Part shown: piece after piece, positions 24,960 through 47,026 of the stretch
Layout: each line of letters starts with the position of its first letter
Numbering within the stretch: the stretch's first letter is position 1
Origin: Deinococcales bacterium
Lineage (GTDB): Bacteria > Deinococcota > Deinococci > Deinococcales > JAAFIG01
DNA: 64,000 bases
NCBI GenBank assembly: GCA_043778225.1
Contig: JAYWGM010000079.1
Location: forward strand, 14,094 to 78,093
Direction: 5' to 3'
Notes under the pieces: model-generated
What the model saw: the letters and a program-made list of their open reading frames with translations, nothing else
What the model was told of the DNA's origin: nothing
Databases searched by the model: none
Translations under genes and position numbers: made by a program

Positions 24960-26390
24960 TCATCTCGAGGCAATAATGCCGATATTAGCAACCAAGTTTG
25001 TGACCAGACTTGGCAGAACACCGAGCAACACAACGCCAATTGCACAGACAATCATCACGGCTCGAGACATACCGCTTGAAAGGTCTGGGAGGGCAAAACC
25101 TTTGGGTTCGGCGAACCACATTAGGGCAACAGGTCGCAGGTAATAGTAGACACTGACTGCACTGGTGAGGGCTGCCAGAATGACCAAACCGTAAAAACCA
25201 GCTTGGGCAGCGCCAGCAAAAATCAGGTACTTGCCCATAAAACCAGCCAAGGGCGGAATGCCAGCCAAGGCAATCAGAAAAAGCGCCAGCATTGAAGCTA
25301 AGAACGGGTTTCTCGAGCCTAGTCCAGCTAAACTGTCCACTTTAATACCATCATCGGATGGAGAGATGCTGTTTAAGACTGCAAATGCACCCGCATTCAT
25401 CAGGGCATAGGCTGCCATGTAAAAAAGTGCCGCAGGAAATGCCTGTGCTGGACTCGAGAGAACCGCCAAACCAATGTAGCCCGCATGGGCAATACTCGAG
25501 TACGCCAGCATTCGCTTAAAATTGGTTTGACGCAGTGCAGCTAAATTACCAATCATTAGGGTTAGCGCAATTAAGAACTGGGCTGGCGTTTGCCAACCCG
25601 CCACGCTCGGCAGTGCCTCACCAAAAATTCGGAGCATCCCCGCAAAGGCTGCGGCTTTGACACCAACACTCATGTACTGCGTAACGGCGATGGGCGCACC
25701 TGTGTAGACATCTGGAGTCCACTGGTGAAACGGCGCAAAAGCAACCTTAAAACCAAAGCCAATCAGAATAAAAAGCGCTCCGACCGCCACAATTGGCGTA
25801 TTGGCAGGTGAACTCGAGACAGCGGTACGGATTGCCTCGAGCGCAAAAGTTCCCGTGCCACCAAAAACCAAGGCAATACCAAAAATTAGAATCGCACTGG
25901 CAAAAGAACCCAAGAGAAAATACTTCATGCCAGCTTCTTCGGATTGCTGTCGGGCTTGGAAACTGGTCAGAATATAGACACTAAGGCTCATGACTTCAAA
26001 ACCGATCAGCATCACAATTAAATCCTTGGAATGAACCAACAACATCGTGCCACAAATGGCGTACAACATAATCGCGTAGAACTCGGCGGGAAACGAACCC
26101 GAGCGCACGATTCCGTCGCTGCTCGAGGCAATCGCCGCAATACCAGCCAGAATCAGAATGACACTGAAACCCAAGGCAAAATTATCCGCCAAAAACGCAC
26201 CATTAAAACTCGAGAGACGCTGATTCCACAAGGCAACCGTCCAGCCAAGCGCCACCACAAGCCCCATTGCCGACAGCCCCGCGATGCCACGGCGAGTTGT
26301 ATAAAATGGCAAGACCGTTGCAAAAACAGCCGTGATTAAAACCACAAGAATGGGCATCAAAGACAACACGTTGACATCTGGCGGGGTCAT
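24960..26390 (-). CDS. nuoN: NADH-quinone oxidoreductase subunit N
   Basis: EAGMKYF, FKVAFAPFHQWTPDVYTGAP, KRMLAYSSIAH. Confidence 0.95.
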   Translation of the reverse strand: MTPPDVNVLSLMPILVVLITAVFATVLPFYTTRRGIAGLSAMGLVVALGWTVALWNQRLSSFNGAFLADNFALGFSVILILAGIAAIASSSDGIVRSGSFPAEFYAIMLYAICGTMLLVHSKDLIVMLIGFEVMSLSVYILTSFQARQQSEEAGMKYFLLGSFASAILIFGIALVFGGTGTFALEAIRTAVSSSPANTPIVAVGALFILIGFGFKVAFAPFHQWTPDVYTGAPIAVTQYMSVGVKAAAFAGMLRIFGEALPSVAGWQTPAQFLIALTLMIGNLAALRQTNFKRMLAYSSIAHAGYIGLAVLSSPAQAFPAALFYMAAYALMNAGAFAVLNSISPSDDGIKVDSLAGLGSRNPFLASMLALFLIALAGIPPLAGFMGKYLIFAGAAQAGFYGLVILAALTSAVSVYYYLRPVALMWFAEPKGFALPDLSSGMSRAVMIVCAIGVVLLGVLPSLVTNLVANIGIIASR

Positions 26391-27883
26391 TTATTTGCCT
26401 CCAATACAATTCCGTACAGTTGCGCCACAACAGGTTTGACCAACTCGAGGGCAGGGGCGCTGTACACGCCAAAGAACACAACCAGTGCGACAATAGGTAC
26501 AAGAACTCGCCATTCTCGAGGTGATAAGTCTGCAACGGTGTGTGTGGCTTCTTCGTACCAAGTTTTTTGATAAGCCGTCAGCGCGAAGGCTGCACTGGCA
26601 ACCACCGTAGTGACAGCAATAGCAGCCATCCACGGGTTGGCTTGGTATGCGCCTAGTAAAATGCTGTACTCGCCAATAAAACCAGCTAAGCCCGGCACGC
26701 CAATGCTGGCAAACCAGAGCAGCAATGCCACTCCTGCAAAGGCTGGGGCGCTTGCAGCGAGTCCGCGAACCCGTCCAATCTCGAGGGCGCGGTCAAGGGC
26801 TTTTTCTTTGGTTTCGTCGCCGCCCTCGAGCATAATAAAACGTCGTTCGAGCATCCCGACCACCAAGAACAACCCGCTCGAGTAAATGCCTTGGAAGGCA
26901 AGCAGCAGCATTGCGCCACTTGCTCCAGCTGGATGCAGACTGAACACGCCAAGAGCAACCAAGCCCATGTGGGAGATGCCTGAGTATGCCAGTAAGCGCT
27001 TAAAATCGGTTTGGGCAAAGGCAATCCACGCGGCATAAATAGCAGTGAAGGCAGCCAGTAGCATCCAAATCCATTGGTAATTATTAGCAACATCTGGAAA
27101 GAGTGGCAAGGCAAACCTAAACAAACCGTAGCCTCCAACTTTGTAGAGTGTTCCCATTAAGTCTGCCACACCACTCGGATGATTCTGGGCGTGAAATTCT
27201 GGCAACCAAGCGTGCATAGGAAACAACGGGGTTTTGACCGCGAAAGCAATCAAGAAGCCAAGGAACAACCAGACCTGCTGCCATTCTGGGATATTCCGTA
27301 CACCACGCAGCAAATCCTCGAGCAGAAAGGTTGGCGAACCCGACAAAAGGCGTGTAGCAATGATACTGACCAGCATCAGCAAACCACCAAAAACCGTATA
27401 AAGCGCCATTGTGGTTAGCGCTTTGACTCGAGTGATGCGACCATACCGCCCAAGCAAAAATAAACTCGGGATAAGCGTCGCCTCAAAGAACACATAAAAC
27501 AGAATCAGGTCTCGAGCCGCGTAAATACCAAGAATACCAGTCTGCATGGCAAGGGCAAGCGGATAGAACGCAGCTAACTTGCCATCGTCTCGAGTGGTTA
27601 AGTAATACAAGCCAAGCGGAACCATCAGTGCTGTGACCAACGAAAGCAGTAACGAAACACCATCGGTACCGACTGCAAATTTAACGCCCAGACCGGGCAA
27701 CCAATCCACAACCGTTGAGAATTTCTCGAAACTCGAGCCACCCAACCAAATGTACACACCCAAAGCTAAATGTGCCACGCCAGCCAGCACGGCGAATTTT
27801 CCTCGAGATGCCTTAGGTACTGCCAAAGACAAAAACGCCACCAGCAACGGCACAAAAATAAAAGCAATCAAAACCCAATTCAT
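26387..27883 (-). CDS. nuoM: NADH-quinone oxidoreductase subunit M
   Basis: FYVFFE, VKTPLFPMHAWLP, LAYSGISHMG. Confidence 0.95.
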   Translation of the reverse strand: MNWVLIAFIFVPLLVAFLSLAVPKASRGKFAVLAGVAHLALGVYIWLGGSSFEKFSTVVDWLPGLGVKFAVGTDGVSLLLSLVTALMVPLGLYYLTTRDDGKLAAFYPLALAMQTGILGIYAARDLILFYVFFEATLIPSLFLLGRYGRITRVKALTTMALYTVFGGLLMLVSIIATRLLSGSPTFLLEDLLRGVRNIPEWQQVWLFLGFLIAFAVKTPLFPMHAWLPEFHAQNHPSGVADLMGTLYKVGGYGLFRFALPLFPDVANNYQWIWMLLAAFTAIYAAWIAFAQTDFKRLLAYSGISHMGLVALGVFSLHPAGASGAMLLLAFQGIYSSGLFLVVGMLERRFIMLEGGDETKEKALDRALEIGRVRGLAASAPAFAGVALLLWFASIGVPGLAGFIGEYSILLGAYQANPWMAAIAVTTVVASAAFALTAYQKTWYEEATHTVADLSPREWRVLVPIVALVVFFGVYSAPALELVKPVVAQLYGIVLEANK

Positions 27884-27911
27884 GCCAGACCCCCAACCAT
27901 CACACCGCGAT

Positions 27912-29873
27912 TCATGCGAACCCCCGCAGAATTAAAAAGCCAATCAGGGCGACTGTGCCAATCAGGATCGAAATGCCGTAACCTCGAGCAAATCCATTTT
28001 GCCAGAACGACAAACTCGAGCCAGCCTCACCGACCTGTTCGCCAAGCACTTGCGCGCTGGCTTGCACACCGCTTTTGTCCACAATGCCAAGAAATAAAGC
28101 TGCGACTTGAGACGGATTACCCAGCACAAAATCGTAGACCTTATCCAGAAAAAGCGCGTTTCTCGAGGCATTCCCAAAAGAATTTGGAATTTCTGCCACG
28201 ACTCTTGCGCCGTCACGTTTGAGGAAATAATTTGTTACAAAGTAACCCAAAATAACCGCCAAAACACTAAAAATAATCGGAAGGAATTCGACAATTCCCT
28301 CGAGTTTGATCATCCCATCAGCGTTATGGGCAACTTTCTCGAGGTACGGTTCGATGAGGTTCACGTTCTTACCCAGAAAATGCGGTAATCCGATGAATCC
28401 ACCAATCACACTGAAAACCGCCAGAATCATCAGTGGTACGGTCATGACTACGCCAGATTCGTGCGGATGCTCATGACCTCGGTAATCGCCTAGGAAGACC
28501 AGTGCGTACCAACGCCACATATAGGCAGCCGTCATTGAAGCAACAATCACCATAACCGCAAATAAAAGTACATTGCCCGCCTCGCCGCCAACAAACGGCG
28601 ATTTAAGCGTACCCTCGAGAATCGCGTCCTTCGAGAAAAACCCAGCCAGTAGTGGCACGCCCATAATCGCCAGCGTCCCAATCAACGAAACAAGATGTGT
28701 GGTTGGTAGCGCCCCACGTAAGCCGCCCATTTTCCGCACATCCTGCTCACCTTCGAGGGCATGAATGACACTGCCCGACGATAAAAACAAGAGGGCTTTG
28801 AAGAACGCATGGGTTAGCACATGGAAAATACCAGCCCAGTACGCACCGCAACCCACCGCCACGAACATAAACCCAAGTTGCGAAACGGTACTGTATGCCA
28901 GAATTTTCTTAATATCAGTTTGGGCAATGGCACATACCGCGCCATAAGCAGCGGTTGCCGCGCCAACCCAAGCCACCCAACCCGAAGCCACGGGTGCATT
29001 GGCAAAAAGCTCTGAGTTTCGTGCCACGAGGTACACACCAGCCGTGACCATCGTCGCCGCGTGAATAAGGGCGCTTACTGGAGTCGGACCCGCCATTGCA
29101 TCGGGCAACCATGTCGAAAGTGGCAACTGAGCGCTTTTACCTGCCGCACCAAGCATCAAGAACAAACACGCCAACTCGAGACCGGGTGCGCCATACGCCA
29201 CCGTGTTCCTCGAGACTTGCCCCACCAGTGGCACATTGACCGAACCAAAGGATTCTTTAAGTTCGTGCAGATTAAGCGTACCGAATTCCTTAAAAAGTAA
29301 AAACATCCCGAGCATCAAAAACGCATCGCCAATCCGATTGACGATAAAGGCTTTACGCGCCGCATTAGAATTATTGAAATCCTTGTACCAAAAACCAATT
29401 AAAAGAAAACTCGCCACGCCCACGCCTTCCCAACCAATAAACAGCACAGGCAAAGAATCGGCAAGCACCAGAATCAGCATGAATGCCACGAAGAAATTGA
29501 GGTAGGCAAAGAACCTCGAGAAACCAGGGTCTTTGTGCATATACCCAATCGCAAAGACATGAATCAGAAACCCAATCCCCGTGATAATTAGGGTCATCAG
29601 GCTCGAGAGTTGATCGAGGGCAAAACCCATGTACAACGATTTGCCCTCGCCACCAATGAATGGTAAGAATTCCCAAAGCTGCACGTGCCACTGCTTACCT
29701 TCGGCTAAACCAAGCGTACCAAAGAAACCAAGCACCGCCATCACAAACGACACCAGAATCATACCACTTGCCACAAAACCCGAAGTCGGCTCAGGAAGTT
29801 GCTTACCAAACGCAATTAGAAGCAACCACCCAAGAAGCGGTGGAACAATCATCAAATAAAAAATAGATTCCAC
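27912..29873 (-). CDS. nuoL: NADH-quinone oxidoreductase subunit L
   Basis: GWEGVG, NRIGD, KSAQLPL.TWLPDAMAGPTPVSALIHAATMV. Confidence 0.96.
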   Translation of the reverse strand: MESIFYLMIVPPLLGWLLLIAFGKQLPEPTSGFVASGMILVSFVMAVLGFFGTLGLAEGKQWHVQLWEFLPFIGGEGKSLYMGFALDQLSSLMTLIITGIGFLIHVFAIGYMHKDPGFSRFFAYLNFFVAFMLILVLADSLPVLFIGWEGVGVASFLLIGFWYKDFNNSNAARKAFIVNRIGDAFLMLGMFLLFKEFGTLNLHELKESFGSVNVPLVGQVSRNTVAYGAPGLELACLFLMLGAAGKSAQLPLSTWLPDAMAGPTPVSALIHAATMVTAGVYLVARNSELFANAPVASGWVAWVGAATAAYGAVCAIAQTDIKKILAYSTVSQLGFMFVAVGCGAYWAGIFHVLTHAFFKALLFLSSGSVIHALEGEQDVRKMGGLRGALPTTHLVSLIGTLAIMGVPLLAGFFSKDAILEGTLKSPFVGGEAGNVLLFAVMVIVASMTAAYMWRWYALVFLGDYRGHEHPHESGVVMTVPLMILAVFSVIGGFIGLPHFLGKNVNLIEPYLEKVAHNADGMIKLEGIVEFLPIIFSVLAVILGYFVTNYFLKRDGARVVAEIPNSFGNASRNALFLDKVYDFVLGNPSQVAALFLGIVDKSGVQASAQVLGEQVGEAGSSLSFWQNGFARGYGISILIGTVALIGFLILRGFA

Positions 29874-29876
29874 AAT

Positions 29877-30179
29877 TTATCCCTTCAAACTCGAGAGTTC
29901 ATCCACATTCGTAGAAACCCGTTTACGGAAAATTGCCACGATAATCCCAAGCCCAATGGCAACTTCGGCAGCCGCCAGCGTCAGAATAATAAACACGGCT
30001 GTTTGCGCCTCGAGATTGCCCCAAGCCCGAGCAAACGCTACCAACACCAGATTAGCACTGTTCAGCATTAACTCGACACACAAGAACATTTGAATCACAC
30101 TACGGCGCATCAAAAAACCAACTGCGCCAATCGAAAATAAAATACCCGCAAGGGCAATGTAATACGGCGTTTCAACCAT
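29877..30179 (-). CDS. nuoK: NADH-quinone oxidoreductase subunit K
   Basis: ELMLNS, AAAEVAIGL. Confidence 0.95.
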   Translation of the reverse strand: MVETPYYIALAGILFSIGAVGFLMRRSVIQMFLCVELMLNSANLVLVAFARAWGNLEAQTAVFIILTLAAAEVAIGLGIIVAIFRKRVSTNVDELSSLKG

Positions 30180-30194
30180 GATGTCCTCTCAGTT

Positions 30195-30218
30195 GGGCGA
30201 GGCAAGCCCCGCCCCTAC
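30195..30218 (-). repeat. GTAG-type REP
   Basis: Minus strand GTAGGGGCGGGGCTTGCCTCGCCC; identical to 32210-32233. Confidence 0.85.
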
Positions 30219-30230
30219 GGTGATTTTGGG

Positions 30231-30794
30231 TCATGCGACAACCTCCTCGGGGGTGTGGGTGGCACGTTCCTCGAGGGTTTCTCGAGCTTGCTTGCCTTCT
30301 GGTTCGCGCTTGACCAATGCCACTGCACCAACCACAGCAATAATCAGCAGCAACGAAACTGCTTCAAAAGGCAACAGAAATTTTGTGAACAGCACTTCGC
30401 CCACAGGACCCGGTGTACCACCTTGCAATGCCTTGGCTGCTGTCTCGAGAACCTTTGGGGCTTTGTACAAAAATGCCATGTACGCCAATGCACCCGCCAG
30501 CACAATCCCACCTGCAATCGCCACAGGAGCAACAAGCGGCAATGGGTCTTCGGCTTGGTCTGGATACTGCGCGTTCAAAAGCATAATCACAAACAAAAAC
30601 AGCACCATAATCGCACCCGCATACACAATCACTTGGACACTGGCTAAGAACTGCGCCTCGAGCGTCACAAAAATACAGGCTAAAGTCAGCAGCGTTCCTA
30701 CCAACGACAACGCACTATAAAGCGCGTTCTTCCACAGCACCGTACCAAGCGCCCCAGCTATTGCCAATAAGGACAATAATACGAAAACAATCAC
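30231..30794 (-). CDS. nuoJ: NADH-quinone oxidoreductase subunit J
   Basis: [20 protein letters not shown]. Confidence 0.95.
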
Positions 30795-31471
30795 CGTTTC
30801 ACTCCTTCCTTATGTGGAGCTATTGGTGCATCGTGAACTCGAGACGGACTCGAGCGGCTGATGTCATCCCCAGCATCCCGCACCACCGATTCTACACCCA
30901 CACCCGAGGCTGGCAAACTCGAGACTCGCTTATTCGGGTTTTTCAGTGCCTCGAGCGCCTCTGCGACCTCGGCTCGAGGGGTGATGGTGTAACCAGGTTT
31001 GACTGGCTTATTTTTAGCGCTGGCTTCGCGGCGTTGCGGTTTTGTACCCGTTACCCCGACCATCATGTCTTCTTTACCGTAGACAAAATCTCGAGACTTA
31101 TAGTCTGCCAATTCAAAATCTGTACCCAGAATAATTGCACCAGTTGGACACGCCTCCTCGCACATTCCACAGAAAATGCAGCGCAGCATATTGATTTCGT
31201 AGACCGAAGCGTACCTCTCCCCTGCCGAAACCGTGTTGCTCGAGGTATTCTCGGCAGCTTCGACATAAATCGCATACGCAGGGCAAGCTGCGGCGCAAAG
31301 CGAACAGCCAATGCACTTTTCGAGTCCATTAGCGTGCTTTGTGAGAATATGCCGACCACGAAAACGCGGTTGCAAACGAATAGGGCTTTCCGGATAAGAA
31401 ACGGTTAGCGGCTTTTGGAACAATTTGCCAAGGGTTGTACCCATCCCTTTAGCGATCTCGAGAACACCCAT
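30791..31471 (-). CDS. nuoI: NADH-quinone oxidoreductase subunit I
   Basis: [12 protein letters not shown] and [15 protein letters not shown] 31471 with GGAGG. Confidence 0.95.
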
Positions 31472-31506: not shown

Positions 31507-32103
31507 CTAATTAACATAAACCAATTCGTCCAATTTTTGGAATAAACTCTTTGAATCAATGACCCAAAATCCATTTTCTTTGTTTACTAGAACATTCAAA
31601 ACATAAGATTCTGTATTAAAATTACCAGAATTAATGTCTTTTCGGACATTTTCCGCAATGGCTGACTCAACATCAACATTTTGGGCTTTCTTTTTTGCAA
31701 TATCCGTCGCTATTGCAAATGTAGCAAGCATAGAAACTCTTGATAAATCTGGCACTTCAGCAAAGATTTTAACTTTGGTACGACTTTCTTCTTGGAAAAT
31801 TTCTGAGACTTGAAATCGCATCTTTTGAAAAGCCAGAATATTCAGCGTTTTGCTGCTCTTCATAAGATTTGCGAATTTCTTTGAATTCATCAATAGAAGT
31901 TCAACTTCAGATGCTTTAGCAAAATATGCACTCAACTGGGTATTAAACATATTTTTTTGATCAAGCTCATCAGAACTTCCAAATAACTTTGTACCAGTAT
32001 AATAACCAGCAAAAGCGATAAGAAGCATCCGCGAAACACGCCAGAACTTTTGACGGTTTTGTTCTTGCATTTCAGCTTGTTTGATAATTTTTTCAGTATC
32101 CAT
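31507..32103 (-). CDS. Hypothetical membrane-anchored protein inserted between nuoH and nuoI
   Basis: 198-aa AT-rich ORF, one N-terminal hydrophobic segment, no CTCGAG seen. Confidence 0.75.
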
Positions 32104-32209
32104 AATAATTCGCTCTATCAGCCAGCAGCATTAGCTCGATCAGGGGCTACTCGGCAATATGCCTAAAATAAACTTCCCAAATTGAGAATGAAATATCATT
32201 AACCGCAAA

Positions 32210-32278
32210 GGGCGAGGCAAGCCCCGCCCCTACGACAAAAACTGTCTTCAGCCGTAGGGGTTGGGCTTGCCCAACCCC
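32210..32278. repeat. Divergent GTAG-REP doublet
   Basis: 32210-32233 (-) and GTAGGGGTTGGGCTTGCCCAACCCC 32254-32278 (+). Confidence 0.85.
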
Positions 32279-32279
32279 A

Positions 32280-32467
32280 CCATTCACAAATTTTATTTCT
32301 GGACAAATCCTAGGTATTTTCATGGGCGCAATTCCTCGAGTTCTTCGGCTATGCGTTGTGCTGGCGTTCCCATATCAAGCATAGGACTCCAAATTTCAGC
32401 ATACTTCGGCATACGGCATACTCAGGTCTTCAGAAACAGCTTGGTACGGAAACTTAACGTAGCTCAT
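32280..32467 (-). pseudogene. Chain of short gene relics (MSYVKFPYQ..., MLDMGTP..., MKIPR...)
   Basis: Short ORFs, two starting at ATGA overlaps; resemble N-termini of an aspartyl-protease-like partner and HicA-like genes (by eye). Confidence 0.4.
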
Positions 32468-32676
32468 GCTTTTAGACTTTGGAGTAATTCCTGGAAAGGA
32501 GTGGGTGGTTCATGTGAGAGCATTGGAGAACGCAACTCAATCTTCTTACCTTTCCATCGCTTTGCAGCTTCGTGACTAGCGCGAATCAATTGAATTTCCT
32601 CGAGTTCAAATTCCAACTCAGTCAATTCTTCAGGGTTAAACCCATCTAGTTGGGCAATTACTTCTTGTACATTCAT
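32464..32676 (-). CDS. Small antitoxin-like hypothetical protein
   Basis: GGAGGTG SD before ATG 32676; acidic helical N-terminus. Confidence 0.6.
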   Translation of the reverse strand: MNVQEVIAQLDGFNPEELTELEFELEEIQLIRASHEAAKRWKGKKIELRSPMLSHEPPTPFQELLQSLKA

Positions 32677-32701
32677 GCCGTTCACCTCCAACATCATTCT
32701 A

Positions 32702-33826
32702 TCAGTCACCAGCACTGGCTCGAGCAGGTGCTGGTCGCACAGGGTTTCTCGAGGTAATCACAAAAATGAGTATCAGGGCAACAAAGCTAATTCCGCCCAG
32801 AATCCACGGGCTGCCAGTTGGTAAGTACCCTCTGAATCCTGCTGCCACAAGCGTATTGCCAAGTGCCACTGGGAATAAGAACTTCCAACCAAACTGCATT
32901 AACTTGTCGTACCGCATCCGTGGCAGTGTGGCACGAACCCAGATGAAAATAAACAAGAACACACCGATTTTGGCGTACAACCAAATGAATGGAATGTTCC
33001 CAATGTTAAACCCAGCTATCTCGAGATTCGGTCCTTTATACCCACCAAAGAACAGGGTCGCCATGACCGCCGAAGCCGTAATCATTGCGACGTACTCCGC
33101 CATTTGAAACAATGCCCATTTGATACTCGAGTATTCGGTTAGGAAACCCGCCACCAGTTCTTGTTCGGCTTCTGGAAGGTCAAACGGTGAGCGATTCGTT
33201 TCGGCAAAGGCTGCCACAAAAAAAGTCATGAATGCCACACATTGAAACAGAATTAACCAACCATTCGCGGTTTGCCATTTGACAATCTCGAGCAGGTTCA
33301 TGCTGCCCACCAGAATCAGCAGTCCAAGTACACTTAAACCCATTGCAAGTTCGTAGCTGATGACTTGAGCGCTGGCACGAAGCCCGCCCAGAAGCGGGTA
33401 TTTGCTGCCCGAAGCCCAACCGCCAAGGAAAATTCCGTACACACCCATGCTGGTCGTACCAAGAATAAACAACAACCCAATGTCAAGGTTAAACACCCAA
33501 GGGTCAGTGCCGAATAGACTGCCCGCAGGACCGGCTGGAATTGCACCAAAAGCCGTTAAGGACATGGTAATGGCAATCAGAGGCGCAAGCCAATAAACAA
33601 ATTTATCTGCCAGTGTAATGTTGACATCTTCCTTGAAAATACTTTTAATTGCATCAGCAAGAGGTTGTGCCAAGCCAAGCGGACCACCAACCCGATTCGG
33701 ACCGTGACGCATTTGGAAACGCCCAAGCAAACGGCGTTCGATTAGGGTCATATAGGCGAAAGTAGTTAATAACCCGAGGGCTACGCCAACGGCTTTTAGT
33801 AAAACAATAAGTATCTCGAGAATCAT
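32702..33826 (-). CDS. nuoH: NADH-quinone oxidoreductase subunit H
   Basis: [46 protein letters not shown]. Confidence 0.96.
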
Positions 33827-33833: not shown

Positions 33834-34442
33834 TTATGGATTGAGATTGAATGGGTCAAGATTACTTTGAGCTACACGGAATTTTTCATCGCCAGTACCA
33901 CGGTTCACTACAATCGTAAAAGAAAACGTTTTATCTATATTTGCCAAGTCACTTAGATTTAGTTGATCGAAATCGTATCTCAAGCCCGGCAACACACCTT
34001 CCACGGTAGCATTGCGGAGTTGCGCGAACTCTTTACCATCTTTATCTTCTAAGGAAAGATACAACGAAACTTTTTTGAAATCTGTTTCTTTAGTAAATAC
34101 AACAACATGAGCATGGGCATCTCTGACTTGTTGCTTGAACGCACTTGAAGAAAAATATTGATCTCGAGCAGCAGGTGTTTGCAATACAAAACTAAGAAGT
34201 TGGCAAAAAATACCAACCTTACCTGGTGTTGACATAAAATTAACAGCACCATTTGCTGAAGCAAAAGGCTTCTGACCCACATAGTTTCCAGGCGATTGGG
34301 TCACAGCAGCTGTACACCCCTTTTGCGCTGCACTTTCTGATGCCACAAAAACTGTCCTTGACCAACTTTCACCACCTATTGTTCCAGGGGCGCAGCTAAC
34401 AACCAGTCCCAAGAAAACAAAAATCATTACTTTTTTCACCAT
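33834..34442 (-). CDS. Putative lipoprotein inserted between nuoG and nuoH
   Basis: Signal peptide with lipobox-like LVVSC; AGAGG SD. Confidence 0.7.
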
Positions 34443-38079: not shown

Positions 38080-38143
38080 ATACCCACCTCGAGCGAAGCG
38101 TTTTTATCTTCTCGAGTATTGCCTTGTGGCTTTTGCATCGGCT

Positions 38144-38638
38144 TCATGCTTCACGCTCACTTTGCATCAGCTTAAAATGATTTTTGCCTGCTGAGAACAA
38201 CACATCAAACTCAAGGAAAAAATTCATTGTCCCCAGTATCAAACGTGCATCTAGACTTTGCGACCATGCAAAAACCAGCTTGACTGGCTTAAAATCTGCC
38301 ACTCGAGCTTGAAGTACCACACCTCGAGCTTTAGCTTGGGCAAGGTTGCCAGTCAGTGTTACAGGAATGTTTTGCTGATTCCAATCCAAGCCCAACTCGA
38401 GTCCGAGTTGAAATGGTAAGACATTCACGGTTGCACCCGTTGCAAGCAGAGCAATCGCCTCGGAGCGGCTTGAGCCAGATTGCAGGCAAATTGGCAGAAA
38501 CGGGGCAAATGTGTTTTCGGGAGTTTTTTGGAATTCAAAAGTCATGGTTTTCATGGCTCGAGCATAAGGCATGGAGCAAGGATGAACTGCACTTGCAAGA
38601 AGTAGGGTTAAAAAATAGGTTTGCAAGGCTTGATTCAT
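38144..38638 (-). CDS. Retropepsin-like aspartyl protease family protein, probably catalytically dead (alternative start 38554)
   Basis: ALLATGATVNVLP (DTGA changed to ATGA), LILGTMNFF. Confidence 0.65.
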   Translation of the reverse strand: MNQALQTYFLTLLLASAVHPCSMPYARAMKTMTFEFQKTPENTFAPFLPICLQSGSSRSEAIALLATGATVNVLPFQLGLELGLDWNQQNIPVTLTGNLAQAKARGVVLQARVADFKPVKLVFAWSQSLDARLILGTMNFFLEFDVLFSAGKNHFKLMQSEREA

Positions 38639-38659: not shown

Positions 38660-39589
38660 CTAGGCAGCTTGATGTGCTACTTGAATGGATTGTGGTTCTT
38701 CTTGTGCGATCATGACACTGAATAAATCCGTTTGTGGGTTGGCTTGGTTGATTCGAGTTTGTGCCATTTCTTGGTATTTTTTGATTAGTTCGATGCCTAT
38801 AAATTGGCGTTGTAATTTTGTTGCGACAACTCCGGTTGTGCCTGAGCCTGCAAATGGGTCAAGAATAACATCGTGTTCTCGAGTTGAGGCGAGAATGCAG
38901 ATTTCGACGAGTTTTTCTGGGAAGACCGCAAAGTGTGAATCTCTAAATTTACTCAAGGGTATTTGCCATACAGTGCGTTTATTTCTGCCTTTAGGGTGGA
39001 ATGCTTGATCCCAGCGTCCGTCGTGAAGATTGCTGCTCCCTGCATTTTTGCCATTTTCGGGTGTGCCTCCTTCTTTGCCAAAATGGTTTCGTCCGCCTTT
39101 CATTCTGGATTGTTCGGTGAATGTAACGTGCGGTTCGCGGATAGCATCGGCATCGTAGTAATAATCTTGGTTGAGGGCGAATAAGAAAATATATTCATGG
39201 TCGGTGGTTGGACGGTTTTTGATACTCGAGGGCATGGCGTTGGGCTTGTGCCAAATAATGTCGGAACGCAGTAACCAACCATCATCTTGGAGTGCTAGTG
39301 CCACGCGCCATGGAACACCCAGTAAGCATTTGTCGCGGTAAGTATCGCCAAGGTTGAGCCAGAGTAAACCATTAGGTTTGAGTTTTTGTTTTAAGGGCTG
39401 AAAAATACTAACCAAGTTCGCCACATATTCTTGGAGTGTTGCTTCTTGTCCAATTTCCGCTTGATTTGGTTCTTCGGCGTAATTTCGTAAGCCAAAATAT
39501 GGTGGACTGGTGATAATGGCTTGAATAGACTGATTCTCGAGGTTAGGCGCAATCATTCGGGTATCCCCAAGGAGAACTTGATTGTTCAT
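38660..39589 (-). CDS. Beta-class amino DNA methyltransferase, likely N4-cytosine
   Basis: TSPPY near N-terminus, DPFAGSGTTG near C-terminus; DIIWHKPN, HEYIFL. Confidence 0.92.
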   Translation of the reverse strand: MNNQVLLGDTRMIAPNLENQSIQAIITSPPYFGLRNYAEEPNQAEIGQEATLQEYVANLVSIFQPLKQKLKPNGLLWLNLGDTYRDKCLLGVPWRVALALQDDGWLLRSDIIWHKPNAMPSSIKNRPTTDHEYIFLFALNQDYYYDADAIREPHVTFTEQSRMKGGRNHFGKEGGTPENGKNAGSSNLHDGRWDQAFHPKGRNKRTVWQIPLSKFRDSHFAVFPEKLVEICILASTREHDVILDPFAGSGTTGVVATKLQRQFIGIELIKKYQEMAQTRINQANPQTDLFSVMIAQEEPQSIQVAHQAA

Positions 39590-40551
39590 AATGCTTGTCC
39601 TTGCAATACTTTTTCGATGAATTGATTGAGTTGCACTTGTTTGGCTTGGTCAAAACCCATAAAGACATTGGGGTTCATGTTGAAATGAAAAACCAAGTCA
39701 ATTTGATTTTGAATCGTTTCGAGTTCATGCACAGACCAATTCTCGGCAATAATCACCACCACAATAAAACAATTGGCAGATTGAATATCGCTAATGGCAT
39801 TCATGATGTCTCGAGTGAACAGATGCGAATGCCCACCACCTTCGGTTTCTCGGGTTTTAACGGGAATAAAAATTTGTTGACTTTGGTTATTCTCGAGGAC
39901 TAAATTGGCAGATACATCTATGGTGTGATTTCCAACTTTGATTTGCTTATCAGCTATTTGAATTTCTTTGAATTGACCATAATTACCGTGAATCGAGTGA
40001 TACCATTGCAGGGCTATTCCCAGACCAATTCGCACATCAGCTTCTATTTTATTACCACTGATACTTCGTCTTGAACCTTCTAAACGATCAATCACCACTT
40101 CCCGAACAGCCTGCCATTCAAAACTCTTAACGGCTGACCTATACTCAAAAATCAGTTCGATTAAACCATCAGTTTCGGCTGTTATTTTCTCGATTTTGAC
40201 GAGCTTCTGCATTCTCGAGATCAGTGGTGCAAGTCGTTGTTGTGGAGCATCCCGTATCATCCATGCAAAAAAATAGAAGCAGGCTTTTTTATGCGGGTAT
40301 GGTCTGCCGACCCCATCAAACAGAAATGGTTTTTGTTGATTGCTTTGGTCATAGCAAGCCATGATTATGCTTTTAAGTTGTTCTTTTGAAGCAGTGAGTA
40401 GCAATTCATTCAACGTTAAGTGCGAACCTGTGACTTGTCGAGCAGTTCTTTCAATCCAATCATAAAAAGGTTTGGCTTGGTCGGCTAAAAGTGTTAGCTC
40501 AAGCAAGCGGTAATGTGCGATATTGACTTGGTGAACAATGATTTCTTTCAT
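39586..40551 (-). CDS. Putative type II restriction endonuclease
   Basis: ATGA-coupled to the MTase; ID..(x)n..PVKT nuclease-like core; LEGSRRSISG segment. Confidence 0.65.
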   Translation of the reverse strand: MKEIIVHQVNIAHYRLLELTLLADQAKPFYDWIERTARQVTGSHLTLNELLLTASKEQLKSIIMACYDQSNQQKPFLFDGVGRPYPHKKACFYFFAWMIRDAPQQRLAPLISRMQKLVKIEKITAETDGLIELIFEYRSAVKSFEWQAVREVVIDRLEGSRRSISGNKIEADVRIGLGIALQWYHSIHGNYGQFKEIQIADKQIKVGNHTIDVSANLVLENNQSQQIFIPVKTRETEGGGHSHLFTRDIMNAISDIQSANCFIVVVIIAENWSVHELETIQNQIDLVFHFNMNPNVFMGFDQAKQVQLNQFIEKVLQGQAL

Positions 40552-40673
40552 TTCCACCACTTCAAATGAGTTTGAGAATACCGAAAGCTAAACCCATCAT
40601 GCAGCTCGAAACTCGAGCTTTGTGGCTTTTGGAATACATCATTTTGCATCATGGGTTCACCTCCTCCTCGAGT

Positions 40674-42032
40674 TTATTCGTCTTTCCAACGATTGCCGTA
40701 CCCTGTGTACATGGGTTTGCCGTGTTGAGCAATGTATTCAAATTCATCTCGGAAATGCTTGAACGCACTTTGCACGGGCATGATGCACGAGTCAGCGAGT
40801 AAGCAAAATGATTTTCCGCGAATGTTGCCCATTAAATCCTCGAGGATTTTCACATCGTTAGGGTCGCCTTGTCCTGCAATCAGTTTTTGGAAGATACGAT
40901 TCATCCAAGTGCCGATTCCTTCGCGGCATGGGGTGCATTTGCCGCAAGATTCATGTCCATAGAAACGCACGAGGTTGTACATCATGTTGACAATATCAGC
41001 ATTTTTGGGAATAAGGATAATACCACCAGTACCAAGGCTCGAGCCTTTGCTAGAAACATTTTCGTAATCTGCTCCCATATCTAGTATTTCGTCAGTAAAA
41101 GGTAAGATTGGCATACTCGAGCCGCCGGGATGAAAGCCTTTTATCTCCTCGGTTGGTCCGCCGCCCCATGTGTAAATGATTTCGCGGTAAGTCGTGCCAA
41201 GCGGTAATTCGTATACTCCGGGGCGCTTAACAGGTCCAGAAATATGAAACAAGAAATTACCCTTACTTTTTTCTGTTCCCATGCTCGAGAACCAATCTGC
41301 ACCATGGCGCATAATCAGGGCAGCCGAGGCAATACTGACGACATTGTTGACGGTACTCGGCATTCCAAAAATTCCGGCTTGGGCTGGGAACGGTGGTTTT
41401 AGGCGCGGATTGGCTCTCAGCCCCTCGAGTGAATTCATCAGTGCGGTTTCTTCGCCGCAAATGTATGCCCCTGCGCCACGATGCACAAAAACTTCCATGC
41501 TCTTACCAAAGCCAAGCGCATTATCGCCAAGAAGCCCTGCGGCTCGAGCTTCGGCAATGGCAGCGTTTAAGCGGTTTGCGCCAAGGATATACTCGCCGCG
41601 AATATAAATATATCCAACATTGGCGCGAATGGCGTGCATTCCAATCAGCATTCCCTCGAGTAACTGGTGTGGGTCGGCTTCCATCAAATAACGGTCTTTG
41701 TACGTTCCGGGTTCGGATTCATCGGCGTTACAAACCAAGTAATGCGGTTTGCCATCTTCTTTGGGCATAAACGACCATTTTAAGCCCGTCGGGAAACCCG
41801 CGCCGCCACGTCCTCGCAGACCAGATTTCTTTACTTCGTCTTGCACACTTTCTGGTGTTCCAGCCAAGGCGCGTTTTGCACCTTCGTAAGCCCCATGACG
41901 CAGTGCATACTCGAGCGTCCACGAATTATTCTGTCCAACGTGTTCGTACAATCTTGGTTTGAAACGCGGGTCAAGACCACTGGTAATGCTGGTCGGTTTC
42001 TCGAGAACGGGTGCATCGGCAACTAAAGTCAT
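40674..42032 (-). CDS. nuoF: NADH-quinone oxidoreductase subunit F
   Basis: [49 protein letters not shown]. Confidence 0.97.
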
Positions 42033-42610
42033 AAACTTGCTCCTTCGGCAGTGATTTGGCTCACCACATCGCCATTTCTTTGAATAAACACTGGGGCTTG
42101 GGTATCCGATTCGGGCATACTGCCATCACCTCGAGACTTGAAATCAGCAAGCAGGGCATTCAAGCGTTTTTTGGTCAGGCATTCGTAATAACCACTGTCC
42201 GAAACTTGCATCAGAGGCGCAGTGCCACACGAGCCTAGGCATTCGACTTTTTGCACACTGAACAAACCATCAGCCGTCACATCGCCCACGCCAATATCCA
42301 GCGTTTCACACAAGTAATCCCACATTTGGTCAGAGCCTTGCAGCGCACACGAAAGGGTCATGCAGACTTGGAGGTGATACTTACCCGTTGGGCTGCTCGA
42401 GTAGGTGCTGTAGAAGCTCATCACCGATTTAACTTCGGTTGGTGTGCTTTCGATTAACTGCGCGATTTCGGCAACTCGAGCATCAGAGATGTAGCCTTCG
42501 GCGTTCTGTACTTCGCGCAGAAGCGGCATGACCGCACTGCGTTTACGATTGGCTGGATAACGAGAAAGAATATCAGCGACGAGTGGTTGTTTATTGGTAA
42601 AGAAATTCAC
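42029..42610 (-). CDS. nuoE: NADH-quinone oxidoreductase subunit E
   Basis: CMTLSC and [10 protein letters not shown] 2Fe-2S ligands. Confidence 0.95.
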
Positions 42611-43029
42611 AGTTGAACCTCCAAGGCTCGAGCCAGTACGACAATGTGTTTGATGGTAATTCCCATAAAAGCAAAGTAGAAAACCATGACGAGGGTATAA
42701 GGCATTTGCCAGTAATCATTGGGAGACTGAAAGAACGCAATTATTGGTACAGAAAGTGGGATAAAGCCACCACAAAGCATAAGTGCGTACCATTTTTTAT
42801 GGTTTATCTGATTCTGATACCAAATGGCTCGCAACAGTCCAAAAGCAGCAATACTACCTAACAGTGCCAGTATTGCCAATCCAAGATTCACGAATTGTTC
42901 GCCTTTAAGAAAGAAGAAAAGCACCATTAAAAAACCAATACTGCCCCAAATAAAGCAGATGAGTGCTGGCACAAAACCAAAAATTAGCTCAAACCAACGC
43001 CCAATAGTAGGTAATGCGACTCGAGTCAT
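42607..43029 (-). CDS. Hypothetical 4-TM membrane protein
   Basis: Four hydrophobic segments; overlaps both neighbours; similar to 43026-43448. Confidence 0.75.
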   Translation of the reverse strand: MTRVALPTIGRWFELIFGFVPALICFIWGSIGFLMVLFFFLKGEQFVNLGLAILALLGSIAAFGLLRAIWYQNQINHKKWYALMLCGGFIPLSVPIIAFFQSPNDYWQMPYTLVMVFYFAFMGITIKHIVVLARALEVQL

Positions 43030-43448
43030 AAGCTCACCTTTTGTGTACCTCGAGAAAGTAAGTAAATTTGTTTAGCTGCCACCAGCACAAGGCTTATGGC
43101 AAAGAATGGAAAAACGATTTTCAAATTGTCTATGTAACCAACTGGGCTTGGAAAAATAAATAAGATGATACTCGCAGCGATACCAAGGGCTAACAACCCA
43201 GTAATGAGCATTTTTGAACGGGTGTTTTCTCGAGCTACACTGACATAAATTAGGCTTATGCAGGCTAATAATCCGCAGAGTGAGATTACAAAAAGTAAAA
43301 TAATTCCAAGTCCATCGTTATTAAATTTGCTACCAAAAAAGGTTATCGTGGAATAACAACCTAAAACTGCCCAAAAAGCAAAGTATAGCGCAGGCAAAAC
43401 GCCAAACAGCACGTCAATAACTCGAGATGATGGGCTGTTCCAATTCAT
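43026..43448 (-). CDS. Hypothetical 4-TM membrane protein
   Basis: Four hydrophobic segments; TAATG overlap with the Uma2 gene. Confidence 0.75.
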   Translation of the reverse strand: MNWNSPSSRVIDVLFGVLPALYFAFWAVLGCYSTITFFGSKFNNDGLGIILLFVISLCGLLACISLIYVSVARENTRSKMLITGLLALGIAASIILFIFPSPVGYIDNLKIVFPFFAISLVLVAAKQIYLLSRGTQKVSL

Positions 43449-44170
43449 TACCACCACCTGATTTGCACATCTAGAAACTCGAGTGGCGTGGCTAGTTGTC
43501 CTTTTTCGAGCTTAACTTGATGCAAGAATTCCACACCGTCTGAGTCTGCATAAATCTCAAGTTGTTGGGTATTTGTATTCAGCACCCAGAGTTCTGGGAC
43601 GCAAGCTCGAGCATAGGCTGAAAGTTTGTAATCCCAATACTTGGGTTTTTCGGCTAAAACTTCGACCAATAAGTACACATCGCCGAGAGTAGCGTTGTGG
43701 TGATTGTATCGTTCCCGAGGGGCTTGTAGAATAGCAATTTCTGGGGACACCACAAATTTTGCACCAAGTTCGATGTCGTAACCGCCCCGAGCAACAATAT
43801 CGTCACCTAACCCTCTAAGCATTTCGGTGCTTAAATCAATGGCTGCATTGGTTTGGGCTTGTGTGGATATTGGTGTTTTGAAAAAATGTCCGTTAATCAG
43901 TTCGACACGCTGGTCTGGTGTGAGTATTCTCGAGTGATACAGTTTTTTCATGTCGTCAGCGTCGTAAGTAACGAGAATTCCTTCGCCCCAGACTTGACCG
44001 TTTAAGAGTTCAATAGGTTTATAAAAAAGGATTTCTTGGGCAAACATTTCGTAAAACTGCTCGAGTTTGAATTGGTGTAAGTCAGACTTAAATTCTCGAG
44101 TAAAGTCCACACTGTTATTGACTGCTTGGGTCAGTCGTTCCATGTATTCTTGCTCGGCAGTTTGACTCAT
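43448..44170 (-). CDS. Uma2 family (DUF820) endonuclease-fold protein
   Basis: RVELING, LLVEV, K...YARA.VPE.W.LN. Confidence 0.85.
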   Translation of the reverse strand: MSQTAEQEYMERLTQAVNNSVDFTREFKSDLHQFKLEQFYEMFAQEILFYKPIELLNGQVWGEGILVTYDADDMKKLYHSRILTPDQRVELINGHFFKTPISTQAQTNAAIDLSTEMLRGLGDDIVARGGYDIELGAKFVVSPEIAILQAPRERYNHHNATLGDVYLLVEVLAEKPKYWDYKLSAYARACVPELWVLNTNTQQLEIYADSDGVEFLHQVKLEKGQLATPLEFLDVQIRWW

Positions 44171-44174
44171 ATTC

Positions 44175-45437
44175 TCACCTGTCTACGTCGCCCATCACGG
44201 GGTCAAGGCTGGCAATTACGGTAATCAGGTCGGCGAATAATCCACCAATGCCAATCACGGGCAGGGCTTGCAAATTCACAAAGCTCGGGGCGCGGAAATG
44301 AATGCGGTATGGCATACTGCCGCCGTCTGAAACAATGTAACAACCCAGTTCGCCTCGAGCGCTTTCGGTTGGCACGTAAGCCTCGCCTTTGGGTGGATGG
44401 TAGCCTTCGGTCACGAGCTTAAAATGGTGAATTACAGCTTCCATGCTGGTCTCGAGTTCTTCGCGTGGTGGCAGACTGATTTTGCGGTTTGGGTCTTGGA
44501 TTGCGCCGGGCTTTAATCTCGAGAGGGCTTGGCGGCAAATTTTAGCCGATTCGCGCATCTCTTGGACGCGCACCACAAACCTATCAAAGCTATCGCCGTG
44601 CGTACCGAGCGGAATATCAAAATCGTATTGTTCGTATCCCGAGTAAGGCGTGGTCTTGCGGTGGTCGAGTGCTACACCAGAGGCGCGTAAGTTTGGTCCA
44701 GTGATGCCCAAATCCAGCGCTACAGCTTCGGACATAATGCCAACGTTCTGGGTTCGCTCGAGAAAAAGCGGATTGGTTTTGAAGAGTTTTTCGTAAGTAT
44801 CCACTTTACTATCAAACGTGTCCAAAAAATTCTTGACCATGGTTTCAAAACCATCTGGCGTATCTTTGGCAACGCCTCCGACACGAAAATAGCCTTGGTG
44901 CAAGCGTTGTCCGCCAATTGCTTCAAAAATATCTAAAATCGCTTCACGTTCGACAAACGTATAGAAAAACGGCGTTAAAGCGCCCAAATCCAGTAAACCT
45001 GTGCCTAAGAAAACCAAGTGGCTCGAGATACGGTTTAACTCGACCAACAGCACCCGAATTTCTCGAGCGCGGTCTGGGACTTCTGCGCCTACAAGTTGCT
45101 CGACAGGCAGGGCATAGGCAAGTTCGTAGCCAAAACCATGCAAGTAATCCATGCGTGGTGCGAACGTAAAATTTTGGGCATAAGTGCGGTTCTCCATGGT
45201 TTTTTCAAAGCCCGTATGCAAATACCCAATGTGCGGCTCGACCCGTTTAACGTACTCGCCTTCCATGTCCACCACGACCCGCAGTACACCGTGGGTACTT
45301 GGGTGTTGTGGTCCGACATTCAAGCGCATAATTTCGGTGTGCAACAAGCCAGAACCCGTTAAACTCGAGTGGGTTTGGGGAATAAGCACTTCGGCTCGAG
45401 ACTCGAGTTTAAGCGATTTTTCTTGTAACTGGGTCAT
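44175..45437 (-). CDS. nuoD: NADH-quinone oxidoreductase subunit D
   Basis: [27 protein letters not shown]-terminus. Confidence 0.97.
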
Positions 45438-45439
45438 GG

Positions 45440-46042
45440 TTAATTACTCCTTTCTGGCACTGCGGTAGGGAGTTTTGGAATCAGACTCGAGTCTATGCGC
45501 GACCCGCCTCGCCAACCCGATAAACCTGTGTCTTTGCCGCTCAAACCAGCCCGAAACGCTGATGGGTCTAAAAAGCGTCCTTCACGGAAAAGTGTTGGCG
45601 TTTCACCAAGTGGAAAATCCTTACGCAGTGGATGTCCATCCAAATCCTCTGGCGTGAGGATTTTTCGCAAGTCTGGATGGTCGGAGAATTCGATGCCCAT
45701 TAAATCGTAGACTTCGCGTTCATGAAATTCGGCAGTGCGCCAAATGTCGGTGACAGTTGGTAATTTTTCACCGTCTGGCAGGTAAACCTTGACCAGAATC
45801 CGCTCACCGTTTTTGGCATTCAGTAAGTTGTAAATAACCGCAAAACGCTCAGGCATAAATTCGGTGTACTCGAGGTAATCCACGCCCATGAGATCGGCAC
45901 AGATACTAAAACCAGTGGCTTTACATTCAAATAAAAAGGCTTTGAAGGTATCACGGCTTGCAACAACCGTTTTGAATGCTCCCTCGAGAATCGGGTATTC
46001 GCGCAAGGTAGCTTTCTCGAGGGCAGTGGTTAAGGAATTCAT
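45440..46042 (-). CDS. nuoC: NADH-quinone oxidoreductase subunit C
   Basis: [30 protein letters not shown] overlap with nuoB. Confidence 0.95.
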
Positions 46043-46578
46043 CTTGTCCATGCTTCCACCATTGGCAACGGCGTACCAAAATCATCCATTGCTTCGCCAC
46101 GAACCTTTTTTTGCAGTTGCATCACGGCGTAAATCAGTCCTTCGGGGCGTGGTGGGCAGCCGGGGACAAAAATATCCACGGGGACAACACTATCGACATT
46201 TTGGACGATTGCATAATTGTTAAACATTCCGCCGCTCGAGGCACACGCGCCCATACTAATCACCCATTTTGGGTCGGGCATTTGGTCGTAGACACGGCGC
46301 ATCACAGGTGCCATTTTTTTGCTTAAACGCCCAGCCACAATCAAGACATCCGATTGGCGTGGGCTGGCACGGAAAACTTCTGAGCCAAACCGAGCAAGGT
46401 CGTTGCGGGCATCGGTAGATGCCATCATTTCTATGGCACAACACGCCAAGCCAAAGGTCATGGGCCAAAGGCTATTGCTGCGCCCCCATGCCACCAGTTT
46501 CTCGAGGGTCGCAAAAACAATCCCCTCATTCTCGAGTTCTTGGACATCTTTTTCAAATAAATCTTTTAGAGTAGACAT
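46039..46578 (-). CDS. nuoB: NADH-quinone oxidoreductase subunit B
   Basis: [29 protein letters not shown]. Confidence 0.97.
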
Positions 46579-46593
46579 TGATAGCTCCTTTGG

Positions 46594-46668
46594 AGAGGTT
46601 AAAAGGTAAAAGGTTGAAAAGGTGAAAAGTGCTTCTCAAGGGCTTATTTTTACTTTAATCTTTCGCCT
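46594..46668. repeat. (GTNAAAAG)n inverted array, degenerate
   Basis: gttaaaag gtaaaag gttgaaaag gtgaaaag ... tttactttaatctttcgcc between nuoA and nuoB. Confidence 0.75.
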
Positions 46669-46672
46669 ATTC

Positions 46673-47026
46673 TTATTTCCAGTCGAGAATGCCTTTTTTG
46701 AGAATGTAAAAGTAGCCAATACCAACCAGCGCCACAAACGCCAGTGCTTCGTAGAAAGCAAAAAGCCCAAGTTTATTGTAAGCCACTGCCAATGGATAGA
46801 AAAAGGCAGTTTCAATGTCGAAAATAATAAAAAGCATCGCCACCAAATAAAAATGCACCGGAAAGCGTTCTCGAGCGCTGCCAATCGGGTCATTGCCGCT
46901 TTCGTAACTCATATTTTTGGCTCGAGATGGTTTCTTGGGTCCCAAAACCGCGCCAACCAGCAAGGCAAGCACGCCAATGCCTGCGGCGACCAGAAACATA
47001 ATAAAGACGTTGAGGTATTGATTCAT
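46673..47026 (-). CDS. nuoA: NADH-quinone oxidoreductase subunit A
   Basis: YESGNDP, FYLVAMLFIIFDIE, KKGILDW. Confidence 0.96.
   Translation of the reverse strand: MNQYLNVFIMFLVAAGIGVLALLVGAVLGPKKPSRAKNMSYESGNDPIGSARERFPVHFYLVAMLFIIFDIETAFFYPLAVAYNKLGLFAFYEALAFVALVGIGYFYILKKGILDWK

Follow-up and report, generated by a model that had tools for sequence, protein, structure and literature searches.

Accessory-gene arrays turn over at four junctions of the complex I operon across a family of Deinococcales

The operon for respiratory complex I (nuo) of an uncultured Deinococcales bacterium, lying within a 64,000-nt stretch of its DNA (the window, on contig JAYWGM010000079.1, or C79, of assembly GCA_043778225.1), carries arrays of accessory genes at four of its gene junctions, nuoD/E, F/G, G/H and H/I, and comparison with relatives shows these arrays, and the turnover of genes within them, to be real and family-wide. 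We think it rather probable that these junctions are integrase-free turnover sites, with arrays assembled as the host recombines with DNA that it takes up from relatives. Throughout the family an essential operon would then offer several slots in which accessory genes are exchanged without mobile-element machinery, with scars that reveal how such a site grows.

All 14 core genes, nuoA to nuoN, are open, in canonical order and on the minus strand, each above the cut-off of its Pfam or TIGRFAM profile, as a first-pass annotation of the window had it. That annotation counted inserts at seven junctions; gene cargo is present at the four just named (spacers of 1564, 2941, 1539 and 1230 nt, 7274 nt in all), and the inserts at A/B, J/K and L/M (94, 51 and 28 nt) are short and non-coding. 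The co-orientation and tight coupling of the cargo that it described are borne out: at 20 of the 22 cargo junctions between nuoD and nuoI the gap is 21 nt or less (the longest is 43 nt), and ten have ATGA or GTGA overlaps, a count that is somewhat generous because hand-picked relic open reading frames (ORFs) of 23–58 amino acids (aa) are included. Gaps of 1–21 nt after the window nuo stop codons leave little promoter room, so that read-through is likely, and with this geometry the cargo would be transcribed from the nuo promoter; scans for promoters and terminators gave counts near those of shuffles (20 versus 24.9, and 28 versus 21.6, standard deviation 5.0) and were not used. A benefit of such expression to defence would be conjecture, and six of the 16 listed window cargo ORFs are relics, stubs, a fusion or broken genes.

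Is the arrangement an artefact of assembly? The source genome (G000; 4.03 Mb, 107 contigs, 89% complete, GC 0.487) is fragmentary enough to raise the question, but contigs from two samples of one study (X1 and X2, both possible DNA sources) span all four arrays with no other letters and at flat depth, and separately assembled relatives share single cassettes and junctions with the window. We give artefact next to no credence. A sequencing-run search also finds window DNA in biofilm metagenomes, with no RNA run among the holders listed.

The wider comparison covered the nuo region of 17 further family genomes, out of 18, and of seven genomes of other families (numbered from G001), spacers being measured only where both flanking nuo genes share one contig. 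Spacers of more than 500 nt occur in the family at D/E in 13 of 15 genomes, at F/G in 9 of 10, at G/H in 11 of 15 and at H/I in 12 of 14. They range from 12 to 1963, 116 to 6584, −1 to 1723 and 172 to 1843 nt respectively, differ in content, and the arrays hold 1–11 small genes each. The E/F junction stays overlapped in 16 of 17 genomes. Empty or near-empty sites are found in G002, G010, G011 and G017, with G/H empty in G002 and G010 and D/E empty in G010; recurrent gain and decay at the junctions, the core of the original proposal, is thus upheld by the nuo loci of relatives. Across the order 71 genomes were sampled, and in 67 of them nuoD and nuoI match on a single contig; the nuoD–nuoI span there is 9.7–18.0 kb in 5/5 family genomes versus 6.4–7.9 kb in 62/62 from four other families, a difference that amounts to one lineage-level contrast because kin genomes are not independent. 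Outside the family there are small single D/E inserts in G019, G028 and G031, and a metagenome scan yielded one further array-bearing locus (L039), without a nuo-end scar. The nuoF/G junction lies inside the NADH module of complex I, and the idea that inserts are confined to module borders was rejected on that ground. The one family genome left out of the comparison (G009, 91% complete) has zero nuoD, nuoF, nuoH and nuoI matches at the thresholds used, through either an assembly gap or operon loss.

The pool from which the arrays are stocked is biased by junction: D/E and F/G hold Uma2 genes, F/G and H/I hold retropepsin-like genes accompanied by a small partner, and G/H holds a lipoprotein gene. 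PIN, HicA, RelE, Mrr, restriction–modification (RM) and AAA-ATPase/DUF4276 genes also belong to the pool. Inside nuo arrays lie 17 of the 22 matches to the retropepsin-like family; Uma2 is not locus-bound, with 21 matches in the source genome. Three of the ten pairs of genomes that share cargo have cargo much closer in sequence than their core genes (94.9 versus 85.5%, 94.5 versus 86.9% and 96.5 versus 88.4% identity), which indicates recent exchange between species; the window Uma2 at D/E is 94.5–94.9% identical to those of G003 and G005, nuoEF only 85.5–86.9%. Could the recurring cargo (the G/H lipoprotein, the D/E membrane proteins and Uma2) instead be accessory parts or regulators of complex I? 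Genes called urf do occur in some nuo operons; all 12 matches to the lipoprotein family among 19 genomes are at G/H, and a Uma2 ORF leads 12 of the 13 D/E spacers longer than 500 nt in the family. The lipoprotein, however, is present in 10 of the 19 genomes at 22–88% identity, is doubled in two, and is missing from the fully read G/H junctions of G002, G005, G007, G010, G011 and G017, and most other cargo consists of RM, Mrr, PIN, HicA, RelE and AAA-ATPase genes or relics, so we hold a role in complex I to be very unlikely. Membership of a nuo operon does not imply one.

The arrays carry marks of how they may have grown. A displaced copy of the last 23–53 bases of the upstream nuo gene is found in 9 of 57 arrays versus 0 of 684 controls with non-adjacent nuo ends, a count from which genuine gene ends at contig edges are omitted; 8 of the 9 align over more than 30 nt, and in the scars that were written out a new ribosome site and gene start come right after. 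The window H/I array holds one, a decayed copy of the nuoH end that had escaped the otherwise largely right first inventory. It is related to linkers in G003 (two, at H/I), G004, G006 and G007, and the distal genes after these related linkers differ. Cargo ends and starts are also repeated within arrays, examples being the Uma2 ends in G007 and G008 and, in the F/G arrays of G003 and G005, a linker with 3–4 copies.

Such scars extend beyond nuo. Among 2375 genes of at least 200 aa in the source genome a distant partial 3′-end copy lies downstream of 12 versus upstream of 3. Eight of the 12 are scar-like, at genes that we take to be valS and gdh from reading their sequences, at diacylglycerol-kinase-like, SAM methyltransferase, peptidase, AlbA/RecG-domain and kinase-like genes, and at nuoH; the other four are paralogues or unclear. 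Scars outside nuo are 32–161 nt long (valS 161, C91 94 and C92 76 nt). At valS, cargo and copy are present in the source genome and G003 and the site is empty in G006 and G007, and the copy in the source genome is nearer G003's working end (146/160) than the source genome's own end is (132/161). Inserts are also found at the V-ATPase A/B junction in 5 of 9 genomes, plus one short ORF, and so the process, seen there and at valS and gdh, is not nuo-specific. Among gene-carrying 3′ scars outside nuo, two of six, both at operon-end sites, have opposite-strand cargo, and the S10-spc-alpha cluster of the source genome has no inserted gene. The early suggestion that insertion either targets stop/start junctions or is tolerated only there is therefore best retained in its second form, as toleration, which fits the opposite-strand cargo and the insert-free ribosomal cluster better than targeting does.

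Do the scars point to a site-specific enzyme? Island att sites restore the 3′ end of their target gene, as the direct repeats do here, and three tyrosine recombinases are encoded elsewhere in the source genome, so that the cassettes might be non-autonomous integrative elements, moved as circles by such a recombinase, with nuo ends as att sites. Against this, repeat length varies within nuo and elsewhere, the targets are unrelated to each other, and no integrase family is matched in 14 window or 90 relatives' cargo proteins, in agreement with the initial failure to see an integrase or transposase in the array. The family scan of relatives' cargo took in 90 of 151 ORFs, on the plus strand of the stretches (ten short minus-strand ORFs were excluded, two of which overlap plus-strand retropepsin-like matches); within that scope one 144-aa protein has an HTH_Tnp_1 match, a catalytic transposase or integrase domain is in none, and all cargo with a family match inside nuo is co-oriented. 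The window scar (32,104–32,160) folds no better than shuffles (z −0.58), giving no attC-like fold, an attC covariance model not being part of that test, and the X1 and X2 contigs hold neither cassette-skipping nor joined cassette-free forms, though contigs drop rare variants. We consider movement by a recombinase encoded elsewhere quite unlikely. The best IntI match (TIGR02249) has 39.5 bits versus a cut-off of 265 and is on other contigs of the 89% complete source genome, and the original description, a cassette-like array without an integron, holds.

With host recombination, the reading that we favour, incoming DNA would pair with a conserved nuo gene through long homology while its other end joins at a short match; where the joint falls just inside the upstream gene, the last 20–60 bases of that gene would be left duplicated behind the newcomer. 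Scars, shared Shine-Dalgarno–ATG linkers and Uma2 ends would then act as reusable short homologies by which slots may be replaced, added by unequal crossover, or deleted. Cargo is in turn eroded by deletions into relics and fusions, as comparison of relatives shows, and selection within the operon may retain only co-oriented, translationally chained outcomes, sparing downstream nuo genes polar effects. The tidy geometry is probably such a filter for unbroken translation, because two of the six scars outside nuo carry opposite-strand cargo, cargo in nuo is co-oriented and Rho is encoded in the source genome.

A number of points weigh against this account. The weakest link is the anchor test, whose outcome is mixed: the end of the upstream gene is more similar in some cargo-sharing pairs (nuoD of the source genome and G003, where the last 150 nt have 95% identity versus 85% in the gene body; nuoF of G006 and G007, 89 to 95%), but there is no rise in others (nuoF of the source genome and G003, 80%; nuoH of G004 and G006, 68%; nuoH of G017 and G018, 77%), and the nuoD ends of the source genome and G001 are 93% identical with no shared cargo. 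Seven of the ten cargo-sharing pairs have no excess of cargo identity. No nuo-end scar was detected in 48 of the 57 arrays, nor anywhere at D/E, and the nine scars come to about six independent lineages because the nuoH linkers of the source genome, G003 and G007 are related. Copies of 5′ ends are unenriched across the source genome (7 versus 6), the family comparison has one genome per species, and competence for transformation is suggested by genes, the source genome encoding ComEC and DprA. A rule that the newest cassette is always proximal was rejected, the most foreign-looking window gene, an AT-rich orphan at H/I, being distal.

The palindrome CTCGAG is the commonest 6-mer of the source genome, at 24,877 copies or 6.2 per kb about three times as frequent as the next; a maximum-order Markov model gives an observed-to-expected ratio of 1.16, which is uninformative since sub-words inherit the excess. 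Several array breakpoints are exactly on it, as are the scar starts in G011, G016, gdh and C92 and the Uma2-end copy in G007, and array and word co-occur in the family. The boundary-motif search that had been recommended finds it within 6 nt of 23 of 102 array alignment ends (de-duplicated, not independent), versus 7.5% for simulated random cuts. Is it then an active recombination signal, an analogue of HIP1 or Chi at which a host enzyme cuts, nicks or pairs, making scars and swapping cassettes? For HIP1, Elhai 2015 (PMC4390886) describes a link to site-specific recombination and Kamoku and Nielsen 2024 a rise in integration efficiency in Synechococcus. But chance identical 6-, 8- and 10-mers contain CTCGAG in 9, 21 and 32% of cases, a range within which the observed 23% falls, and because the word is so common passive microhomology can explain the breakpoint rate. 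The other 79 ends lie elsewhere, many at start codons, only four of nine nuo scars begin no more than 3 nt from CTCGAG, and at the sites measured the junctions of G010 and G002 are empty or nearly so although the word occurs in these genomes at 4.2–4.5 per kb. An XhoI-type endonuclease (PF04555) was not found, control genomes being equally blank, and none of eight Eco57I-type methyltransferase (MTase) matches is tied to CTCGAG. We rate an active signal as unlikely, and doubt to the same degree the bolder picture, in which CTCGAG signals crossovers genome-wide for a cassette system lacking an integrase and the complex I junctions form its permanent, expressed landing array, supplied from a gene pool bound to the locus; if true, a CTCGAG-directed system would be a natural genomic footprint of the purpose of a highly iterated palindrome. 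With passive host recombination, the short-match joint would often contain CTCGAG simply because the word supplies many chance matches. Apart from this, many other 6-bp palindromes are extremely rare in the source genome (GGCGCC 3, GACGTC 1, CTTAAG 8 and GTGCAC 9 copies per 4 Mb), which, beside the CTCGAG excess, suggests a long history of restriction pressure.

Table 1. Features of the window nuo operon and its arrays
Feature	Position	Strand	Basis
nuoA	46673..47026	-	PF00507
A/B spacer, 94 nt, degenerate heptamer repeats, non-coding	46579..46672	-	No significant fold (z 0.57)
nuoB	46039..46578	-	TIGR01957
nuoC	45440..46051	-	TIGR01961
nuoD	44175..45437	-	TIGR01962
D/E cargo 1, Uma2 (PD-(D/E)XK-type)	43448..44170	-	PF05685
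D/E cargo 2, hydrophobic membrane-protein gene	43026..43448	-	Family found only here in G000
D/E cargo 3, hydrophobic membrane-protein gene, paralogue of cargo 2	42607..43029	-	Sequence comparison
nuoE	42029..42610	-	TIGR01958
nuoF	40674..42032	-	PF01512, NF010120
F/G relic ORF, 34 aa, opens array	40548..40652	-	Comparison with G001
F/G type II restriction endonuclease (REase)	39586..40551	-	PADLOC PDLC03531, E 8.5e-88; common to G003
F/G N6/N4 DNA MTase	38660..39589	-	PF01555; PADLOC MTase_II
F/G 87-nt linker fused to retropepsin-like gene	38144..38638	-	PDC-M52B (PADLOC); probable own start 38551
F/G stub ORF, 23 aa, ATGA overlap at both ends	38076..38147	-	ORF reading
F/G 110-aa gene, weak EF-G domain IV match below cut-off	37747..38079	-	PF03764, E 9e-4
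nuoG	35366..37732	-	TIGR01973
G/H fusion ORF, antitoxin-like N-terminus and HicB-like C-terminus	34921..35364	-	Comparison with G005
G/H RelB-like antitoxin gene	34709..34924	-	PF18506, E 1.5e-3, below cut-off
G/H RelE/ParE-type pseudogene, internal stop	34455..34712	-	PF05016; intact in G001, G004
G/H lipoprotein-like orphan	33834..34442	-	12/12 family matches at nuoG/H
nuoH	32702..33826	-	PF00146
nuoH 3′ end and first post-stop bases, source of duplicate	32698..32732	-	Alignment
H/I small gene, kind preceding retropepsin-like genes in relatives	32464..32697	-	Comparison
H/I relics: 23-aa retropepsin-like gene start, 30-aa and 58-aa remnants	32147..32467	-	Intact retropepsin-like gene in G007
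REP doublet, long hairpin	32196..32290	.	Fold z −6.6
Displaced, decayed nuoH 3′-end copy (insertion scar) in H/I	32114..32148	-	Alignment; no significant fold
H/I AT-rich orphan, 34% GC, no CTCGAG	31507..32103	-	Composition
nuoI	30791..31471	-	TIGR01971
nuoJ	30231..30794	-	PF00499
J/K single REP	30195..30218	-	31 similar copies in G000
nuoK	29877..30179	-	PF00420
nuoL	27912..29873	-	TIGR01974
L/M spacer, 28 nt	27884..27911	-	Comparison with relatives
nuoM	26387..27883	-	TIGR01972
nuoN	24960..26390	-	TIGR01770

The cargo of the window (Table 1) largely matches its first inventory, with corrections. Profiles identify Uma2, the REase, the MTase and the RelE fragment, while the RelB-like and EF-G-IV-like matches fall short of their cut-offs. 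At F/G that inventory lacked the 34-aa relic and the 23-aa stub. The relic is probably an internally deleted Uma2, since both its ends match the Uma2 that follows nuoF in G001 (19/21 and 18/21 nt). The 87-nt linker is common to G001, G003 and G005, and the gene once called protease-like does belong to the retropepsin-like family, though Ala stands where its relatives have the catalytic Asp; PDB sequence searches with this protein and the REase gave nothing useful. The 'HicB-like' gene at G/H is HicB-like in its C-terminus, fused to the antitoxin-like N-terminus; G005 holds a PIN gene between the two parts, and homology with G005 stops exactly at CTCGAG. An ESM Atlas query with the G/H lipoprotein returned unnamed clusters only. 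Just past the operon, at 22,478–23,309, a ParD/ParE pair and a 106-aa gene stand co-oriented before an M20 peptidase gene.

Non-coding inserts bearing repetitive extragenic palindromes (REPs) split overlapping stop–start nuo junctions at B/C, J/K, L/M and M/N in G001, G003, G004, G006 and G007, adding a new ribosome site, and the M/N junction of G003 seems to hold a duplicate of the opening bases of nuoN. From its sequence the window L/M spacer looks like a remnant of the 85–166 nt REP-bearing inserts found in G001, G003, G006 and G007. A REPIN-RAYT arrangement was not found, the sole Y1 transposase detected adjoining a TnpB-like gene with no REP core nearby.

Elsewhere in the source genome some twelve genes (on C19, C20, C31, C51, C70, C72, C80, C86, C91, C94 and C101) directly precede tandem copies of their own last 19–32 bases, a short-range cousin of the scars. 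Copies of 5′ starts (57 and 36 nt) lie upstream of cargo before a metalloenzyme gene (C80:62942-63483) and an aldehyde dehydrogenase gene (C48:19045-20499), the C48 copy stopping at a CTCGAG site of its gene. Two V-ATPase sites, the A/B junction (C98:56767-57084) and the position behind subunit D, take variable inserts across the family. The valS-like gene (C65:6711-9365) is itself a mosaic, residues ~600–780 having 38–57% identity to genus relatives and the flanks ~90%, which suggests internal replacement by a distant homologue. A second nuo-like cluster (C86:62909-69254) has genes that resemble nuoB, C and D and nuoI, J and K, with two genes sharing a near-identical C-terminal tail.

An integron is defined by the IntI tyrosine recombinase beside the array and attC hairpins between its cassettes. 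Like integrons the nuo arrays consist of promoterless, co-oriented single-gene units rich in toxin–antitoxin (TA), RM and orphan genes; unlike them they have no IntI and no attC-like fold, and their repeats duplicate host gene ends or cargo stubs. A closer parallel is insertion with long target duplication, first reported in Helicobacter pylori (cited in PMC2853133). Furuta et al. 2010 (PMC2853133) describe cases of it, mostly in competent species, in which RM genes have entered a site without a mobile element and target duplications, long and of varying length, accompany them. Shared with the cases described there are duplications of tens of bases, repeats lying over stop and start codons, the lack of a mobility gene and, in one case, an operon-like setting. 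Here too the repeat exceeds 30 bp (8 of 9 nuo scars), the insert has no integrase or transposase and the site is empty in relatives. The R and M genes that mark those inserts are, however, not within the scar-bounded nuo inserts, which carry other cargo, and the window RM pair has no nuoF-end copy. Different as well are the four junctions of one essential operon, the family-wide occurrence, the multi-gene arrays and the cargo beyond RM.

Displacement arrays of type VI secretion effector–immunity, Rhs and contact-dependent inhibition systems, for which Kirchberger et al. 2017 (PMC5361080) propose homology-facilitated illegitimate recombination, likewise combine an upstream conserved-gene anchor with ordinary replacement, and were there compared with integrons, with no integrase; as described in that paper the anchor is a toxin-delivery gene and the immunity genes are selected, whereas here respiratory core genes are the anchors and the cargo is mixed. 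Oliveira et al. 2017 (PMC5635113) report many hotspots of horizontal transfer with no mobility genes, with recombination in the flanks and a link to natural transformation, and rapid integrase-free turnover between the same core genes is common to both, though here between species rather than strains. What sets the nuo arrays apart is their place inside one operon, the translational chaining, the 1–11 small genes and the persistence across species and genera. Small variable segments with short repeats are treated by Touzain et al. 2010 (PMC2884548). Spero et al. 2015 (PMC4453560) counted nuo genes as colocalised with up to nine intervening ORFs, and because that many are allowed inserts such as these would escape their count.

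HIP1 of cyanobacteria is likewise a palindrome in great excess, suspected of a part in recombination or transformation (PMC4390886; Kamoku and Nielsen 2024; Rodriguez-Cruz 2026, PMC13756078); CTCGAG is another word in another phylum, with an active role here only possible. By title and abstract, in mostly open-access literature, there was no paper on CTCGAG as a highly iterated palindrome or on nuo TA/Uma2 inserts like these. The arrays offer natural breakpoints for asking whether highly iterated palindromes steer recombination, a question open since HIP1 was described, and they illustrate that defence genes can sit outside the reach of island-based searches. What is known, then, is the class of mechanism; what is new is that it recurs at four junctions of one essential operon throughout a family, with a gene pool bound to the locus, and that many of the breakpoints lie at a hyper-abundant palindrome.

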